In this document: one piece after another, positions 501-7,254 of the stretch
How the letters are laid out: each line of letters opens with the position of its first letter
Position numbering within the stretch: the first letter of the stretch is position 1
Virus record (IMG/VR): IMGVR_UViG_2609460356_000006
Length of the DNA stretch: 8,301 nucleotides
Strand: one strand, 5' to 3'
From: a virus
Taxonomy: Duplodnaviria > Heunggongvirae > Uroviricota > Caudoviricetes
Program-made: the position numbers and the translations under genes
Notes under the pieces: model-generated
What the model saw: the letters and a program-made list of their open reading frames with translations, nothing else
The model's database searches: none
What the model was told of the DNA's origin: nothing

Positions 501-2270
501 TTACTTTTGATTTTCTCCACTGTTATGAGATGTATCATTCCACATAGGCATCCAGTCTTCTGAGTCGTCGTGAAGCGTGACGTTTGACCTTATGCCATGT
601 TTTGTTTTGCGCTTCTGGTACTCCTTGCCATATTCAGCCATTGCGCCTGGCATATCCGTACCGAACCTCATCAGCGATACCGGCTTGCTCAGACCATTAG
701 CCCGCATATAAGCCAGATAAGCGTGATACAGATAACGGCGCGGGCTGAATGGCACGATCTCGGCATTGCCAATCAGCATTCCATCACAAACCACCGAAGC
801 CATCAGGTAGCCGCAAAAGTCCACCAGTGAATCCCCTTCACGTTTGATGGCCAGCGCTTCTTCTGATTTCTGCTGCTCATGCAAAAGCTGTTTGGCTTCG
901 TCCTGCCTGGAAAAGCGAGTGAGCAGGTGGCGAATGATTACAGCCAGCTCACCTTCAATCTTCTCGGCCAGCATAGGATCGCGTTCGTTTTCCGGTACCA
1001 CTTCGGAGAAGTTGAAAATCACCCGCCGTCTGGAAACCCCCCCGCTTCTGTCGCTGAACGACATGGCATTGTTATTGACGGCAAGCACCACCGCTGGAAT
1101 ACGGGTTGAATATGGCGCTTTGTGTTTAGGGTCAATGGCTACCTTATCCCCGCCAGTGATAGCTTTAATCCCTGCGCCGTCGCCAGCGTACCGGGTCATA
1201 TCCGGCATGATAATCAGCGAATAGCCCACTACCAGCGCCCTTTCCCTTGGGTTCTCCAGCGCCGCCATGCTCGCTGATACGGTGTTGGCCTTGCCCGCCA
1301 GCATCGTGCAGATCTCAGCCATAACACTTTTACCACTTCCGCCCGGCCCCGTTACCTCAAGAAACAGCTGCCAGTCGTACCGGTTCGCCAGCACCATAAA
1401 CAGCGCAGACAGTACGCGGTCTGCTTTTCGGTCATTATCCGCCACTGAGCGGCGGAGCCATTTCCAGAAGTTCGGCGCATGGGTTGCCAGAGTCTCTCCT
1501 TCTGCTGGTTCGCTGAATGGCAATTCGCTCGCAACGATAAGCCAGTCCTTTTTATCATGCGGTCGAAATTGGCCTAACCGGGTATCAAAAACCCCGTTGC
1601 TGAAACCAATAAGATTTCGGGCTGTATTACCCATCACTGGCAGACCCAGCTTCATTGTATCGACAGCGGATTTAATCGCGTTCTGCGAATAGGCGACTTC
1701 GGCATCAATAAAAATTTGCGCCATTTCCCGCTGTAGCTCTTTATCCGAAAGCGGAACCCACACCACGCCGTTGTAATGATGAACCGTGTCAGAATCAGCA
1801 TGGATCGCCAGATTGCCATCGTAATGAGCAAGCAGAACCTCCCCGCGCTGGCTGGCTCCCATCTGGTTAAGCGCTGGCGTAGCACTACCCCTCGTAGTCA
1901 CCATTAGGGGCTCGTCTTCCAAACGCTTCATTAATGGCGTCCAGTCCTCTTTCTCACCTTTTTCGTTGATAAACTCAGCATTGGTAACGCCAGCCTCACA
2001 CAGCTTATTTGCAATCATGCTGATTTGGTTTTGCTCGATAAGTCCGGCCTGACAGACACGAGCAAACCGACGGCCTTTATCAACAATGCGCAGGTGTGGC
2101 AATTCCGCCAGTTGGGTGTGATCCAGAACCACAGGTGGAACATCGTCTCCATGCTCGCCCTTGCCTTTCTGGTAATCCTGAGCGGCTTTCCATGCTCCCG
2201 TTCCAGCAAAGATGATGGCCTCCTCCATTTTGTCGCGCGGGAGGGTTTTCACATTAGGCGCGTTTTTCAT
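501..2270 (-). CDS. P4 alpha-like replication protein: P-loop (SF3-type) helicase of the phage/plasmid primase P4 family, probably with C-terminal iteron-binding domain
   Basis: 589-aa ORF with Walker A GPGGSGKS (aa 308-315) and Walker B-like LIIMPDM; sits at the end of a small-gene operon and directly upstream of the TGTTCACC-type iterons. Confidence 0.85.
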   Translation of the reverse strand: MKNAPNVKTLPRDKMEEAIIFAGTGAWKAAQDYQKGKGEHGDDVPPVVLDHTQLAELPHLRIVDKGRRFARVCQAGLIEQNQISMIANKLCEAGVTNAEFINEKGEKEDWTPLMKRLEDEPLMVTTRGSATPALNQMGASQRGEVLLAHYDGNLAIHADSDTVHHYNGVVWVPLSDKELQREMAQIFIDAEVAYSQNAIKSAVDTMKLGLPVMGNTARNLIGFSNGVFDTRLGQFRPHDKKDWLIVASELPFSEPAEGETLATHAPNFWKWLRRSVADNDRKADRVLSALFMVLANRYDWQLFLEVTGPGGSGKSVMAEICTMLAGKANTVSASMAALENPRERALVVGYSLIIMPDMTRYAGDGAGIKAITGGDKVAIDPKHKAPYSTRIPAVVLAVNNNAMSFSDRSGGVSRRRVIFNFSEVVPENERDPMLAEKIEGELAVIIRHLLTRFSRQDEAKQLLHEQQKSEEALAIKREGDSLVDFCGYLMASVVCDGMLIGNAEIVPFSPRRYLYHAYLAYMRANGLSKPVSLMRFGTDMPGAMAEYGKEYQKRKTKHGIRSNVTLHDDSEDWMPMWNDTSHNSGENQK

Positions 2271-2647: not shown

Positions 2648-2838
2648 TTTGTCTCTCCCATGTGCAGCTCGGCGATTAATGCCCGGTGAATTTCCTGATT
2701 AAAATCACACGCAATAGAAATCAGATTCAGCAGCGTTTCTGAACATTCAGCAGAGGCTTTTTCCAGGATGGTTTCGTAAAGTGATGAAGCCAGCGCTGAT
2801 TTATATTCGGCCTGCTCCAGACAGATTGGCTCACGCAT
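2644..2838 (-). CDS. Hypothetical small protein (64 aa) in the replication operon
   Basis: ORF overlapping both neighbours by a few nt; no recognisable motif. Confidence 0.5.
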
Positions 2839-3022
2839 AGCGAACCTCCTGAACTGGTAGACGGCCAGCGCATACCATCACGCAGCCAGCCGGTGATTGC
2901 TCACGGGCTTCGCGCTCAGTGTTAGCTGTGATGTGAATGACGTTGCGACCGATGGCGCTCAGTGCAAGAAAACGCCAGATGTAGGACTTCCGCCCTTGCG
3001 GGTGTGTGATATGATCTTTCAT
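2831..3022 (-). CDS. Small Ash/Icd-like protein (63 aa), first gene of the leftward operon (position analogous to P4 kil)
   Basis: Internal ATG at 3022-3020 of the long 2831..3805 ORF, preceded by GAGG 5 nt upstream; product [63 protein letters not shown] resembles the Ash/Icd-like small proteins of P4-like islands (from memory). Confidence 0.6.
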
Positions 3023-3109
3023 AGCTGCCTCGTTACTTTCGCTAACGGTGGTGGTTAGAGGCCCGGTTAGTGTTCCACCACTGCCGGGCTTTGCTTTACT
3101 AAAAGTCAT

Positions 3110-3169
3110 GCAATGTAGTACATTGTCAACTCCACTACAGACTAGACCACAGGAGTTGACAATGTCAAC
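3110..3169. promoter_or_regulatory. Divergent control region with palindromic operator-like sites
   Basis: Perfect palindromes CAATGTAgTACATTG (3110-3124) and GTTGACAaTGTCAAC (3155-3169, centred on the RHH start codon), extra half-site TTGTCAAC (3123-3130); 13-bp inverted repeat CATTGTCAACTCC (3121-3133) / GGAGTTGACAATG (3152-3164). Confidence 0.5.
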
Positions 3170-3335
3170 AAGCGAAAATAAAGAGCGCCATGTTGTGCAG
3201 CTCAGACTCGATAAAGAACTGTCAGAGCGGCTCGCTTTAGCGATGAAAGAAGACGGTGACGATAATAAGTCGGGATGGATAAAACGCCTTTTGCGCCGTG
3301 AACTTGATAAGCGCGGCATCGAGCCAAAAGGCTGA
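3162..3335 (+). CDS. Ribbon-helix-helix-type small DNA-binding protein (57 aa), candidate repressor of the divergent operon
   Basis: ATG at 3162 preceded by AGGAG (3151-3155); N-terminal beta-strand pattern [12 protein letters not shown] followed by two predicted helices. The 3048 start of the ORF track lacks an RBS. Confidence 0.65.
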
Positions 3336-3421
3336 ACAGGGTTACTCCCCGTAATGCTGTGGACTGCCCCTCTTAAAAAGGGTCTGTTTTGCGCAACTAT
3401 TAATGAGTTGTGCAGAGGCTC

Positions 3422-3445
3422 CCCTCTTAAAGAGGGTTGGTTATC
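3422..3445 (+). terminator. Possible weak hairpin terminator
   Basis: CCCTC-TTAAA-GAGGG stem-loop (3422-3436) followed by a T-rich stretch; a similar but weaker copy at 3367-3382. Confidence 0.3.
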
Positions 3446-3654
3446 TTCGCAGCTCTCTACGTTTTTCGTCGGAGCCTCTAAACCACGTTTAACGTTGTTT
3501 TGCCATGAACCCGAATACTGTTCGCCTTTGTCTCGATCTCCGTACGTTAAACGTACGCGGTTAATTTGTGCGTACGGATTTCGTCGGCTCAAGGTTTGAC
3601 CACCAGCGGCAAGCCTGGTAATCTGGCGATGTTTCTGTAAAGCGGTATTGCACT

Positions 3655-3683
3655 GGCGGCCCGGCATGGCCGCCTTTGTTTTG
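3655..3683 (+). terminator. Rho-independent terminator for a plus-strand transcript
   Basis: Stem GGCGGCC (3655-3661) / GGCCGCC (3668-3674), 6-nt loop, followed by TTTGTTTTG (3675-3683). Confidence 0.6.
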
Positions 3684-3687
3684 CCTG

Positions 3688-4380
3688 TCATACAATAGCC
3701 TCCACTTTCAGCCCGCCAGCGGTATACCCCTGAACCCGAACACCATCGACGCGATGACGCTTTTTCGTCAGAAAGCGGATGTGATCTGCGTAGACGTACT
3801 GCCATTTACCATCGAGTGCCACACGTTTAAACCACGGATGAGGCTTAGATATGGTCTGGACAACTGGCGCGGAAGCCTTGCAGGGCGTGGGTTCTGCTGT
3901 GCATACCCCCTTATCGTTACCCGTTACTCTATACAGCCAGTAACTTGCCAGCTTCCCGGTCAATTTACGGGTGCGCACGGGGATATAACCCGCCTCACGC
4001 ATCGCCTTACCAAAAGTGGCATCGTCCGGGTAATACTGGCGGCGTAGTTCCGTAGATACTGAAACGGCAAAGCTGCGTTTAGTCGGGTATTCCTGCCACT
4101 GGCCGACAAATTCAAAAGGAAGACCATTAACCCTTCCTTTGGTCTTGTCCTTGCCGCTTATCCCTACATCATGGTCTGCCTCATGCACGGACACGCCGGA
4201 ACGCAGCCACACCAGCCCGTTACCGTTGTGGCGCAACCCCAGATCGGCAAGCGTAAATTCACCGCGATTAATGGGCGACCAGTCACCGGAAATAACCTGT
4301 TTACGGTTCGCTGAAATATCGTGCTGGCTGGCTACAGGGTGAGCGAATCCCTGCCCGTGGAGGGCATTAATCTTTTTCAT
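3688..4380 (-). CDS. Conserved hypothetical protein (230 aa) downstream of alpA; possibly the inovirus Gp2 / YfjJ-like family (low confidence)
   Basis: Long ORF with SD-like AGGT about 9 nt upstream, 20 nt after the AlpA-like stop (operon). Family guess rests on synteny in P4-like islands only. Confidence 0.75.
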
Positions 4381-4400
4381 CTCAGATTACCTGTGGTTAA

Positions 4401-4685
4401 TTAAGCAGATTTACGGCTGTATGGGTTATTGACGTTCTCTACTGCTGGCGGATTACGAACCCACCAGAGCACATCCGAAAGAAGCCAAGCACAGCTATTG
4501 CGGCCAAAGTGACAGCGCGGAGGGAAGCGCCCCTGCTGCTCCATCTTCCAGCGGCTGGAACGGGAAAGACTGGTGATCTCGCTGCATTCATCTTCACGGA
4601 TTCGGCGATCAAACTTAAAGCCGTACTCTTCTAAAAGGGTGCGGCGCTGTTCAGGATTTGGCGGGGTAAAGGTTATATTTTGCAT
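4401..4685 (-). CDS. alpA: AlpA/Vis-family phage transcriptional regulator (MerR-like HTH), 94 aa with N-terminal extension
   Basis: SLSRSSRW...GRFPPRCHFGRNSCAWLLSDVLWWV aligns by eye with the AlpA HTH and W-x3-EVxxW motifs; GGAGG upstream of the ATG. Confidence 0.8.
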   Translation of the reverse strand: MQNITFTPPNPEQRRTLLEEYGFKFDRRIREDECSEITSLSRSSRWKMEQQGRFPPRCHFGRNSCAWLLSDVLWWVRNPPAVENVNNPYSRKSA

Positions 4686-4737: not shown

Positions 4738-4807
4738 GAATTTCCATTGATTCTGGAATCCTTTAAAAGAACATGCAATTCCATTGAAAGATAGAAATTC
4801 CATCAAG
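4738..4807. promoter_or_regulatory. Repeated AATT(T)CCATYRA motif upstream of alpA (three direct copies plus palindrome GATTCTGGAATC)
   Basis: TTCCATTGA at 4742-4750 and 4779-4787, TTCCATCAA at 4798-4806; palindrome 4750-4761; inverted copy TTTCAATG at 4698-4705. Confidence 0.35.
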
Positions 4808-4940
4808 ATAACGCTCCCCTGTTTAAAACAGTTTCCACAGTAATTTCAACGGCTGTCTCGAGAGAAAAAATCATGAATTTCAATAACTCGCCGAAGATCA
4901 CCGTTCTTTAACGATTTGATTCACCTTGGATTGTTCATAA

Positions 4941-5000
4941 CAAAGATGAACAATGATGAACGCTGATGAACAGTGATGAATAACCATGAACAAAGATGGA
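4941..5000. repeat. Six tandem 10-bp units nnnGATGAAC (iteron-like, TGTTCATC on the other strand), candidate ori
   Basis: GATGAAC at 4945, 4955, 4965, with GATGAAT at 4975, CATGAAC at 4985, GATGGA at 4995, all in strict 10-bp register; inverted TGTTCAT at 4932-4938. Confidence 0.5.
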
Positions 5001-5040
5001 AAAAGTTAGCAAGTAATGACCTAGTAGGGACCGTGGATGG

Positions 5041-5140
5041 AGCTAGGTATTGTTAGGTGCTGTCGGGTGCCGTTACGTGTCATAACGTGTCATTACGTGT
5101 CGTTGAATGCTGTTGAATGCTGTTGAATGCTGTTGAATGT
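5041..5140. repeat. Phased decamer array continuing the 10-bp register
   Basis: TGTYRGGTGC x2 (5051-5070), CRTWACGTGT x3 (5071-5100), YGTTGAATGY x4 (5101-5140); no unique spacers between units. Confidence 0.6.
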
Positions 5141-5275
5141 AACGGTAATACACATCAAATATAACAATTGAATCTCCTTGGCGATCATAGAATCGCCAAA
5201 AGCTCCAACAAATATAATTAATTAGTATTTTCACATGAAATATAAATAATACCTACTAACACTGCAAAATAATAT

Positions 5276-5926
5276 TCATTCCGTATAATAAATCGAATTT
5301 AATGCCTTTCGAATTTTCTCATATATTGCTGATTTAGATAATCCAGTTTTAGATATACCTTCCTCATCAGCTAATTTATATAGTTCGTTTAAAATAGCCG
5401 AGATGCTTGGTTTTTTAGAGGTGCCAAACGAATGGCCTATCTTATGTGCTATAAGCTTGACCAGCATCCCCATTAATTTATCATTATATTCCTTTTCATC
5501 TTCTTTACGATGCAAGCCGCGTTTGCTGCTTTTCAATGCAATTCCGACCTGTAAAAGCTCATCCCCTCCCATAGCATAAAGATGCTCTTTTCCTTTGTTT
5601 TGATTAGCAATTATAGCCACCGCCGCAAGGCATCTGTCCTTTATGGGTTGTGGTGTAATATCTTCATCAATAAGAGGATATGCCAGAGCAAACATATAGT
5701 CTGCGGGATAGGCTGTTGAGTTTCCACCTCGAAATAATTTAGATGCTGATAACCATCTACTCAGTTGTCGATAGTATATATTGTAAGCTTCAACTTTCGC
5801 TTCAGGGATATCAGCAGTTTTAACTGTCGGATCTACCCCACACATAAGTAGTGCAAGTTGTTTAATATTTAGCTCCGGGGCTTTGGCTTCTCGCTCGAAA
5901 ATACCCAATTTTAGAAAACTAGTCAT
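5276..5926 (-). CDS. AT-rich cargo protein of unknown function (216 aa) with a C-terminal HTH-like segment, start/stop-coupled to int
   Basis: ATG (5926-5924) overlaps the integrase stop as TAATG; sampled 60-nt lines give roughly 27-45% G+C against about 65% in a sampled line of the replication module; C-terminal ISKTGLSKSAIYEKIRKAL resembles an HTH; no family recognised. Confidence 0.75.
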   Translation of the reverse strand: MTSFLKLGIFEREAKAPELNIKQLALLMCGVDPTVKTADIPEAKVEAYNIYYRQLSRWLSASKLFRGGNSTAYPADYMFALAYPLIDEDITPQPIKDRCLAAVAIIANQNKGKEHLYAMGGDELLQVGIALKSSKRGLHRKEDEKEYNDKLMGMLVKLIAHKIGHSFGTSKKPSISAILNELYKLADEEGISKTGLSKSAIYEKIRKALNSIYYTE

Positions 5927-7146
5927 TATTCAGCCTTATTCAACAAAACAATGTTAGTGAATCCACCTGATAAAATATCAAGTCTGTCATACCATTTATT
6001 CAACGCATCCAGTTTCTCAGGCAAGTACAGACTACGGTTATAAATCGCCATGACTCCCGGCATTGAGTGCCCCAGCAACTGTTCGACAACGTGTGGTGCT
6101 ATACCCATATTATTCATATGCGTTGCTAAAGTTCGTCTTAGATCGTGCAGTGTCCATGGTTCAGAATGCCCTAGCTTTTTATAAACGCCGCGGCCCCACT
6201 GACTTACCGCTTCACTGCCTTTAACCGACCCAAGCAAAAGGCCGGATCGTTTCGTTTCATCATGCAGTATTTCAATGAATTTGCGCATGGCATCCGGCAC
6301 AGGTCTTACAATCTTCTCGCCACCCTTGCTGTGCTCTTTGGGAACTGTCCAGACCCAGGCATCCATATCCCATTCACTCCACTCTGATAGCCTGGCCTCC
6401 TGCGTTCGGCACCCAAACACTATTAAGATTGTCAGTAGCCTGGTGTAGTAAGGCATGAAGCAAGTGCCAGAGGAAATGGCAGCCCATAAATCGCCAGCCT
6501 CTTTATCGTTTAATACCCGGTCTTTTTTTGCCTGTTTTTTACCGACATCTGGAATTGTTAAATCTTCAAGCGCGGTACTCACAGCATAGCGACGAACCCG
6601 GCAGAATTTCAGGGCTTGTTTGCACATCTGGAACACATAACCTGCGGCGACTGGAGTTTTCTTTTTCATCCTGTCAAAGCAGTCAAGCCAGTATCGTGTT
6701 TCACAGTCAGCGAGCGCCATTTTCCCTATATAAGGATAAATGTGTTTTCGCAGCTCCGCTTTGTGCCGTTCAACATTCGCGCGGTTCTCTTCTGCATATT
6801 CGCGTATCCAGTATTCTATAGCTTCCTTAACAGTGACCGGTTTAAGGGTTTCCTGAGTAGTCAACGCCAACTGGTGCTTTGGATCTTTACCTGAGGCCAG
6901 CCACTGGCGGCATTTATCACGCGATGAACGGGCTTCTTTGAGGCTCATATCCGGGTATCGTCCCAGAGTCAGACGATGCAGCTTCTGCCCGTCAAGTCGG
7001 TAAGTAAACACCCAGCTAATACCACCAGCTTTAGTTACCTTGGCGCTCAGCCCGGCACCATCAGCATAGAACTCAATCTTACTGGCCGGGATACCATGTA
7101 ATCCCTTTAACTTCCTGTCGCTCAGTTTGTTAAGTTCGCCAGCCAT
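5926..7146 (-). CDS. int: Tyrosine site-specific integrase, P4-like family (406 aa)
   Basis: N-terminal arm-binding-type region (LSDRKLKGL...WVFTYRLDGQKLHRLTLGRYPDMSLKEAR), catalytic motifs HDLRRT, LLGHS and downstream Tyr; N-terminus faces the host junction. Confidence 0.9.
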   Translation of the reverse strand: MAGELNKLSDRKLKGLHGIPASKIEFYADGAGLSAKVTKAGGISWVFTYRLDGQKLHRLTLGRYPDMSLKEARSSRDKCRQWLASGKDPKHQLALTTQETLKPVTVKEAIEYWIREYAEENRANVERHKAELRKHIYPYIGKMALADCETRYWLDCFDRMKKKTPVAAGYVFQMCKQALKFCRVRRYAVSTALEDLTIPDVGKKQAKKDRVLNDKEAGDLWAAISSGTCFMPYYTRLLTILIVFGCRTQEARLSEWSEWDMDAWVWTVPKEHSKGGEKIVRPVPDAMRKFIEILHDETKRSGLLLGSVKGSEAVSQWGRGVYKKLGHSEPWTLHDLRRTLATHMNNMGIAPHVVEQLLGHSMPGVMAIYNRSLYLPEKLDALNKWYDRLDILSGGFTNIVLLNKAE

Positions 7147-7164
7147 AGACCACCCAGCCCAAAG

Positions 7165-7254
7165 TGTTTATACAAATGTTTATACAGAATTGCTTGCATA
7201 ATAGCATAAACAAAGAAAAACACTGGAACAATATACAGGCATGAATTTATACAA
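7165..7254. promoter_or_regulatory. Repeated TTATACA(R) motif in the int upstream/att region, candidate arm-type integrase sites and int promoter region
   Basis: Tandem TGTTTATACA at 7165-7174 and 7177-7186; related ATATACAG at 7231-7238 and TTTATACAA at 7246-7254; AT-rich. Confidence 0.35.

Follow-up and report, generated by a model that had tools for sequence, protein, structure and literature searches.

Repeat platforms for cooperative DNA-binding proteins are exemplified by ParR/parC of R1 (10 repeats of 11 bp), the heptads of the omega repressor, TubR/tubC and the met-boxes of MetJ. In these systems many short direct repeats, spaced at about one helical turn or less and variable in copy number, carry a cooperative protein filament. 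Here we describe an array of 10-bp repeats in a stretch of viral DNA of 8,301 nucleotides (the window; IMG/VR virus record IMGVR_UViG_2609460356_000006, Caudoviricetes). The array, about 200 bp long, lies between alpA, which encodes an AlpA-family regulator, and the gene for a 216-residue orphan protein, p216. An earlier inspection of the letters alone, referred to below as the sequence-only reading, had proposed it as a candidate origin of replication. Comparison of related loci points instead to a conserved pairing of the array with p216.

Among phage satellites, a similar arrangement is found in P4, where cox-boxes for the Cox protein of P2, spaced 10–11 bp with one protomer per helical turn, lie upstream of PLL, and where the Cox filament wraps the DNA and activates the early operon of the satellite (PMC3936717). 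We took the ori and crr features of P4 from the annotation of its GenBank record (L073), which places rep_origin at 9086–9809, upstream of ORF88/vis (8764–9030), and crr at 4291–4590, after the alpha gene. Within rep_origin the record marks six 'type 1' repeats (GGTGAACA), 10–11 bp apart, and three 'type 2' repeats, which are 10 bp long and in tandem. Since the type 2 repeats (9176–9205) match the cox-box consensus, they are Cox-binding sites for the activation of PLL and not replication elements. In the phage-inducible chromosomal islands (PICIs) of Gram-negative bacteria the origin lies downstream of pri and has an AT-rich region with a set of iterons on either side (PMC6092414), and pri-ori alone maintains a plasmid (PMC6092414, PMC10111431). 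The region upstream of alpA (−449 to +50) was reported to mediate helper induction in a related PICI, after which AlpA autoactivates (PMC11773190, PMC6092414).

The genes of the window are all on the minus strand, in the order int, p216, the array, alpA, several small genes including an Icd-like one, and a D5/P4-alpha-type helicase. The whole gap between p216 and alpA has a 99% identical copy in LR881103.1 ('vB_KppS-Ant'), a 16.5-kb record described as an induced prophage, which also encodes terS, terL, capsid, protease, portal and connector. The capsid and terminase genes of this record show the island to be a capsid-forming PICI-type phage satellite (compare 10.1101/2022.09.08.507074), and because the array region sits in a record of an induced prophage the element is functional.

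Like the cox-boxes at PLL, the array is made of tandem direct repeats 10–11 bp apart upstream of the AlpA/Vis-family gene of a satellite. Unlike them, it lacks the cox-box consensus, is much longer (20 units in four sub-families) and is tied to an orphan protein encoded by the island rather than to a known helper factor. The consensus TTAAA(G/C)NC(A/C) has no match in the array, and its sole match in the window, at 6216–6224 inside int, is at chance level. Phased repeat arrays are known elsewhere; the fast-evolving, p216-linked form in PICI-type satellites would, as far as the literature searched shows, be newly described.

The repeat array

The region 4940–5139 consists of 20 successive 10-bp units on a single grid with zero indels, arranged from the alpA side as follows.

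4930–4938: inverted unit ATTGTTCAT, single copy, closing the alpA-proximal edge of the array
4940–4999, minus strand: family A, six 10-bp units carrying [G/C]ATGAAC
5000–5049: degenerate stretch, five units on the 10-bp grid, constant in close relatives
5050–5069: family B, two units TGTYRGGTGC (TTGTTAGGTG and CTGTCGGGTG)
5070–5099: family C, three units CRTWACGTGT, with 2–5 copies in near-identical islands
5100–5139: family D, four units YGTTGAATGC, 100% identical, with 3–6 copies in near-identical islands

The identity of the array to itself at a lag of 10 bp is 0.647, compared with 0.264 ± 0.032 (maximum 0.39) in 5000 shuffles. The identities at lags of 20, 30 and 40 bp stay high (0.52, 0.49 and 0.44), so the 10-bp register spans every sub-family. 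Elsewhere in the window no stretch of 200 bp scores near it, and Tandem Repeats Finder reported three period-10 arrays within 4940–5139. The strict register of roughly twenty units described in the sequence-only reading was thus confirmed, as was its division into four sub-families; only the degenerate stretch, which had been placed at 5001–5040, proved a bit longer. Family A, the alpA-proximal part, reads nnnnnGATGA/AC on the plus strand and (G/T)TTCATC on the gene-sense (minus) strand. It is stable in copy number and has the YTCAT core common to most related arrays. The inverted unit at its edge pairs with ATGAACAAT at 4946–4954.

Relatives keep the array with varying unit numbers, as the sequence-only reading had suggested checking. 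In five close relatives (among E. coli, K. pneumoniae ATCC 13883, Enterobacter hormaechei and vB_KppS-Ant) the gap between p216 and alpA measures 570, 590, 590, 600 and 620 bp, against 590 bp in the window, and the differences are multiples of 10 bp without exception. The change in copy number is confined to families C and D; families A and B, like the degenerate stretch, do not vary among these five.

Linkage of the array to p216

We examined about 60 loci, fetched via AlpA, via homologues of p216 and from plasmid records. Tandem repeats of period 9–11 upstream of alpA were found in all 16 of the p216-containing lineages that were scored and in none of the 42 loci without p216 (repeat scores 0.56–0.96 versus 0.40–0.60; Mann-Whitney p = 3e-9). 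Two distant loci (L089 and L091), whose p216 homologues are only 27–28% identical, have short arrays too. Altogether, 18 of the 19 p216 loci inspected have p216 upstream, alpA downstream and period 9–11 repeats in between; the exception, L090, is a decayed locus in which a p216 homologue stands without repeats and alpA is gone.

The pairing holds over p216 identities from 100% to 27% and survives exchange of the surrounding genes, with integrase identities of 26–100%, AlpA identities of 58–100% and three unrelated replicase types (alpha-type D5, DUF927-Toprim and AAA_25). Islands that lack p216 but have a 94–96% identical AlpA or a 78–88% identical helicase show a gap of about 100–140 bp and no array. 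Array and p216 are a conserved pairing of an orphan protein with phased repeats in PICI-type satellites, of which we found no description in the literature searched.

The sequences of the units differ almost wholly between lineages, and most arrays hold several sub-families (the array of Serratia L083 has at least four blocks). What persists is the period of about 10 bp, the direct orientation and, on the gene-sense strand, a core of the form (G/T)TTCAT or YTCAT; the arrays of 8 lineages contain TTCAT and those of 6 GTTCA. The spacing also persists, the edge of the array lying 176–291 bp from the alpA ATG. The sense strand is mostly pyrimidine-rich with C over G.

One of the distant loci, L089 (NZ_CP148430.1), was deposited as a circular E. 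coli plasmid of 12,152 bp. With its int, p216 homologue, short 10-bp array and alpA, it seems to be a PICI in excised, circular form and not a plasmid.

The p216 protein

The array is flanked by p216 and a hairpin on one side and by alpA, the first gene downstream of it, on the other.

5276–5926, minus strand: p216, 216-aa orphan of PHROG 30524, with a start that overlaps the stop codon of int
5178–5199, minus strand: hairpin with an 8-bp stem, TTGGCGAT/ATCGCCAA, lying after the p216 stop codon and before the array
4401–4685, minus strand: AlpA-family regulator of 94 aa, 31% identical to P4 Vis/ORF88; the array lies 255 bp upstream

The hairpin is terminator-like in appearance, and relatives have analogous ones. 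PHROG 30524 has no assigned function, and p216 gave no match in Pfam, NCBIfam, PADLOC or PDB sequences and has no recognised fold. With 72 representatives among 1.8 billion cluster representatives, the family is rare, and all homologues with a named source or a locus that was read are from Enterobacterales. The protein is mildly basic (isoelectric point 9.0) and all-helical with a long central helix, and its C-terminal ~25 residues gave sub-threshold matches to the helix-turn-helix models of AlpA and SpoIIID. Binding of DNA by p216 is plausible on these predicted features.

The C-terminal pattern of p216, …KLxGLLxxLLAxK…KPxxSxI…GLSKSTxxxKI…, also ends about 30 otherwise unrelated proteins without assigned function (P0076, P0082–P0109), several of which have in addition an N-terminal motif resembling W..EAA.LL.G.DP. 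These C-terminal ~70 residues may be an undescribed domain of satellite genes adjacent to int.

A possible mechanism

Our preferred reading, offered tentatively, is that the array serves as a platform for cooperative protein binding upstream of a helper-responsive alpA promoter, with p216 as the most likely binder. The anatomy of the array, its linkage to p216, the variation in copy number and the absence of cognate replicase iterons are observed; the binder and the effect of binding we infer. The array would be the DNA half, and p216 encoded upstream the other half, of a two-part module in the variable gap between int and alpA. It lies past the hairpin at the end of the int-p216 transcription unit and before the promoter region of alpA, and stops about 250 bp ahead of the alpA start codon, within the region that senses helper induction in related PICIs. 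A protein, most likely p216, would occupy successive direct repeats about one helical turn apart and polymerise along the DNA, with nucleation on the conserved YTCAT-type units (family A in the window). The nucleoprotein filament formed in this way would gate the alpA promoter or insulate it, in the manner of P2 Cox on the cox-boxes of P4 PLL or of ParR on parC, and the outcome for alpA may be to repress, insulate or sensitise it. The array itself would grow, shrink and diversify through slippage in whole units, which would explain the strict register, the sub-families and the copy-number polymorphism.

The sequence-only reading had taken the one-turn period to suggest either proteins bound on one face of the DNA or intrinsic curvature. 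Phased protein binding stays the best general mechanism, and the predicted curvature is only mild. Because the period of 10.0 bp falls short of the ~10.5 bp of a helical repeat, each unit would drift by ~17°, so that one face would be shared only within ~5–6 units, hence within a sub-family, and the entire array would make about one superhelical turn.

As in the ParR/parC-type platforms, there are many short direct repeats with variable copy number. The array differs from them in having several unit families and a candidate binder without a recognised fold, and in that the island has no partition nucleoside triphosphatase (NTPase): the annotation of the complete 16.5-kb relative L088 includes no ParA-, ParM- or TubZ-like gene, and Pfam detected none in the window. 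A plasmid centromere of the parC type would be expected beside genes for a partition NTPase and an adaptor, so this reading is not supported.

Several observations weigh against p216 as the binder of the array. One protein is unlikely to read four unit sequences. Covariation of the putative recognition helix of p216 (…STIYKKI versus …STIDKKI) with unit type is contradicted by L086. Some lineages have small arrays (three units of 9 bp in L076, 2 + 2 units in L085), and the C-terminal ~70 residues of p216 recur in other proteins, the loci of which are outside the comparison. The co-occurrence itself could stem from physical linkage within one cargo module and not from binding.

A bolder version, which we regard as rather improbable, would make the array a modular 'helper barcode', in which each sub-family lands a different phage-encoded filament-forming protein and p216 acts as a resident repressor or adaptor on the YTCAT units.

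Alternative explanations

A landing pad for helper proteins is unlikely, although its location is apt. On the model of P2 Cox at P4 PLL, the sub-families would bind filament-forming proteins encoded by different helpers (Cox, Xis, Apl-like proteins or others) that switch on alpA. The array occupies the same location as the cox-boxes of P4, which are tandem 10-bp repeats upstream of vis (PMC3936717), the helper is known to induce alpA via the upstream region (PMC6092414, PMC11773190), and the lineage-specific unit sequences in several families would be expected if helpers differ. The strict linkage to p216 is left unexplained, as are PICIs that have a nearly identical AlpA and no array, and the array of the window contains no cox-box. 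One array, that of the Edaphovirga island L087, has at 3828–3870 a sub-family (TTCTAAAGCC/GCTTAAAGCC/…/GGTTAAAGCA, of the TTAAAGCC kind) resembling P2-type cox-boxes and the type 2 repeats of P4. This is suggestive, but the resemblance is within chance given the ~40 sub-families inspected.

We give a similarly low probability to the array having no sequence-specific function, that is, to a slippage-prone minisatellite or spacer hitch-hiking with the p216 cargo module, whose register is a by-product of tandem duplication. Slippage conserves a register automatically, and the complete turnover of units between lineages, the variable copy number in near-identical islands and the presence of only 2–4 units in some lineages fit such an origin. 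Neutral repeats should decay, however, and arrays are still present after p216 homologues with as little as 27% identity, with conserved orientation, YTCAT core, strand bias and distance to alpA; moreover, family A is invariant among the relatives in which families C and D vary.

Is the array an origin of replication?

The array was proposed in the sequence-only reading as an alpha-dependent origin from its resemblance to the alpha iteron and its distance from the iterons that resemble crr. Two features at the other end of the window bear on this proposal.

391–491: iteron cluster, five direct and one inverted GGTGAAYA around an AT-rich stretch, immediately following the helicase gene
501–2270, minus strand: D5/P4-alpha-type helicase of 589 aa with a DNA-binding C-terminus

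The likeness to P4 is considerable. The array is 4.45 kb from 391–491, and the ~4.5 kb named in the sequence-only reading for P4 ori to crr is indeed what the P4 record gives; the position upstream of an AlpA-family gene (vis in P4), the strand and the distance from that gene also agree with the P4 rep_origin, and the type 1 repeats of P4 are likewise 10–11 bp apart. Over P4 alpha residues 327–775, which include the DNA-binding C-terminus, the helicase and alpha are 51% identical. Family A resembles GGTGAACA, and there is one inverted unit at the array edge. The island L081, which has a GGTGAACA-type helicase, has a CGTTCACC unit in its array. A P4-type origin, or a second alpha-binding region at which the C-terminal domain of the helicase binds family A in cooperation with the cluster 4.5 kb away, would account for these points.

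The resemblance of family A to the alpha iteron, given in the sequence-only reading as one mismatch, holds for two of the six units (GATGAACA versus GGTGAACA, 7/8 matches); the others have 2–3 mismatches. By our rough estimate, the chance of a 7/8 match of some sub-family to the 8-mer is ~0.03. There is no perfect GGTGAACA/TGTTCACC octamer within 4941–5140 and only those two units with one mismatch, whereas the perfect copies of GGTGAACA, three in number, are all within 391–491, together with three near-perfect ones. No convincing match to a DnaA box or an IHF site was seen by eye, with no scan made.

All relatives with a readable sequence after the replicase gene have a replicase-specific iteron cluster there, made of the following iterons.

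L001, L080 and L081: GGTGAACA
L074: CTGT[TG]CACC
L076: GGTAGACAG
L078: GTCTCCAC
L082: TTGGTTCA
L084: AAGTGCGGCA
L085: GGTGTAACA

These clusters are equivalent to the one at 391–491. In L074, L076, L078, L082, L084 and L085 the arrays between p216 and alpA contain none of the iterons of their own replicase. The sole exception to this separation is the partial iteron resemblance in the arrays of two GGTGAACA-type islands, namely the window and L081.

The array is not inherited together with an alpha-type helicase. It is missing beside helicases that are 78–88% identical (L007, L011, L012) and from L080 (79% nucleotide identity), which have another gene adjacent to int and a gap of only ~100–140 bp, and it is present beside replicases of the DUF927 type (L082, L083, L085) and the AAA_25 type (L084). 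The sequence-only reading had itself held that homologous islands without the array would speak against an origin, and to a large extent these four islands do so. The layout published for Gram-negative PICI origins, downstream of pri and sufficient for replication as pri-ori (PMC6092414, PMC10111431), is seen at 391–491 and not in the array, which lies upstream of alpA. Thus the window, from the same class of mobile elements as those studied by Fillol-Salom et al. (2018), has such an origin-like cluster, with the array 4.5 kb away.

Unlike the type 1 iterons of P4, then, the array segregates with p216 rather than with the helicase, and an origin would leave families B–D without explanation. 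From its iterons, the clusters of the relatives, the helicase kin without arrays and the published mapping of PICI origins, 391–491, and not the array, is the probable origin of the island. We are fairly sure that the array is not an alpha-type origin, and a P4-type origin or second alpha-binding region at this site is quite improbable; family A may have a minor auxiliary role. A P4-like position does not make the array an origin, and a tempting mis-annotation is thereby corrected.

In the E. coli relative L001 the iteron cluster is larger (10 sites at 1561–1781), and the window diverges from it left of ~388. The gene at 501–2270 is annotated 'primase', yet it lacks the N-terminal 326 residues of alpha, which make up the Zn-ribbon/Toprim primase part. 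The Proteus relative L074, unlike the window, has a full 775-aa alpha-type protein.

Other readings of the array

The sequence-only reading had named an unannotated transcribed gene as a finding that would tell against an origin. The repeats do not appear to be part of one. The only open reading frame (ORF) in the array region is a GTG-initiated ORF of 53 aa (5073–5234, minus strand), and the 10- and 20-bp indels between near-identical islands break any frame, so no reading frame is conserved and a coding gene was rejected. A known RNA gene was also rejected, as Rfam gave no match in the region at E ≤ 1 and folding z-scores are ~0 on both strands.

An element acting in RNA as the 3'-untranslated region of p216 or the leader of alpA, whether unstructured, pyrimidine-rich Rho-loading (rut-like) RNA or protein-binding RNA, is very unlikely. 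The orientation of the array relative to the genes is fixed, its sense strand is pyrimidine-rich with a GC skew of −0.33 (of the 16 arrays scored, 14 have a negative skew), and there is a weak promoter-like site at 5268–5239. Against this, the hairpin precedes the array, the folding z-scores indicate RNA that is neither structured nor unusually unstructured, the arrays of Yersinia show the opposite skew, and no complementary partner or duplicate of the units was found elsewhere in the 16.5-kb island.

Intrinsically curved DNA, or a scaffold for nucleoid proteins (H-NS, IHF, Fis) upstream of the alpA promoter, can be set aside as highly improbable, since, although a 10-bp period lets the bends of single units sum and some relatives (L008, L078) have phased T5 or A4 tracts, many units lack A-tracts and the array, with an end-to-end/contour ratio of 0.905, ranks 41 of 406 where the mean of the window is 0.947 ± 0.043. 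The prediction used a wedge model that told phased from unphased A-tracts in the way expected; it bears out mild curvature of the array and not a strong intrinsic one. The most curved 120-bp segment of the window (ratio 0.82) lies in ~5121–5260, the AT-rich spacer from the p216 stop codon and hairpin to family D, and not in the array proper.

Integrase arm sites were rejected because the array is ~2 kb from the att end and integrases 91–92% identical occur without an array (L012, L017). An operator for AlpA was rejected because 94–96% identical AlpA proteins occur without an array and because separate, promoter-proximal repeats are present at 4738–4808.

Neighboring genes and other features

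Two further features are the following.

5926–7146, minus strand: tyrosine integrase, which has a DNA-binding domain of the arm type; it marks the end of the island adjoining chromosomal yhdJ
4738–4808: operator-like repeats A(A/T)TTCCAT(T/C)RA, with copies at 4740, 4778 and 4797 and an inverted TGGAAT

The promoter-proximal repeats at 4738–4808 lie just upstream of alpA. They are kept in many relatives, whether or not these have an array, as sets resembling CACTGGAAT…GATTCCAG…CTGGAA. The motif does not track AlpA, because L007 and L011, whose AlpA proteins are 83–94% identical, carry a different one.

Between int and yhdJ, at 7160–7186, are 2.2 tandem copies of a 12-bp unit, CAAAGTGTTTATA, which are likely integrase arm-type sites at the att end of the island; P4 also carries tandem 12-bp arm repeats. 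An ORF of 324 aa (2831–3805, minus strand) matches Icd-like cell-division inhibitors only in its last ~50 residues and overlaps an ORF of 230 aa (3688–4380, minus strand) by 118 bp. In E. coli relatives a short Icd-like gene is annotated in the corresponding region, and the ORF of 324 aa may have been over-called or be a fusion.

Implications

If the array were functionless, it would be a clean natural case of birth-and-death evolution of a 10-bp minisatellite. If the helper barcode were true, the gain, loss and diversification of units by slippage would quickly retune which helpers can switch on alpA in a capsid-forming PICI, and this would answer how Gram-negative PICIs sense their helpers. 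In the work on how helpers switch on Gram-negative and capsid-forming PICIs, the activator acting upstream of alpA was not identified (PMC6092414, PMC11773190). The array and p216 sit in the control region of alpA, and they are a testable candidate for part of this helper-responsive switch.

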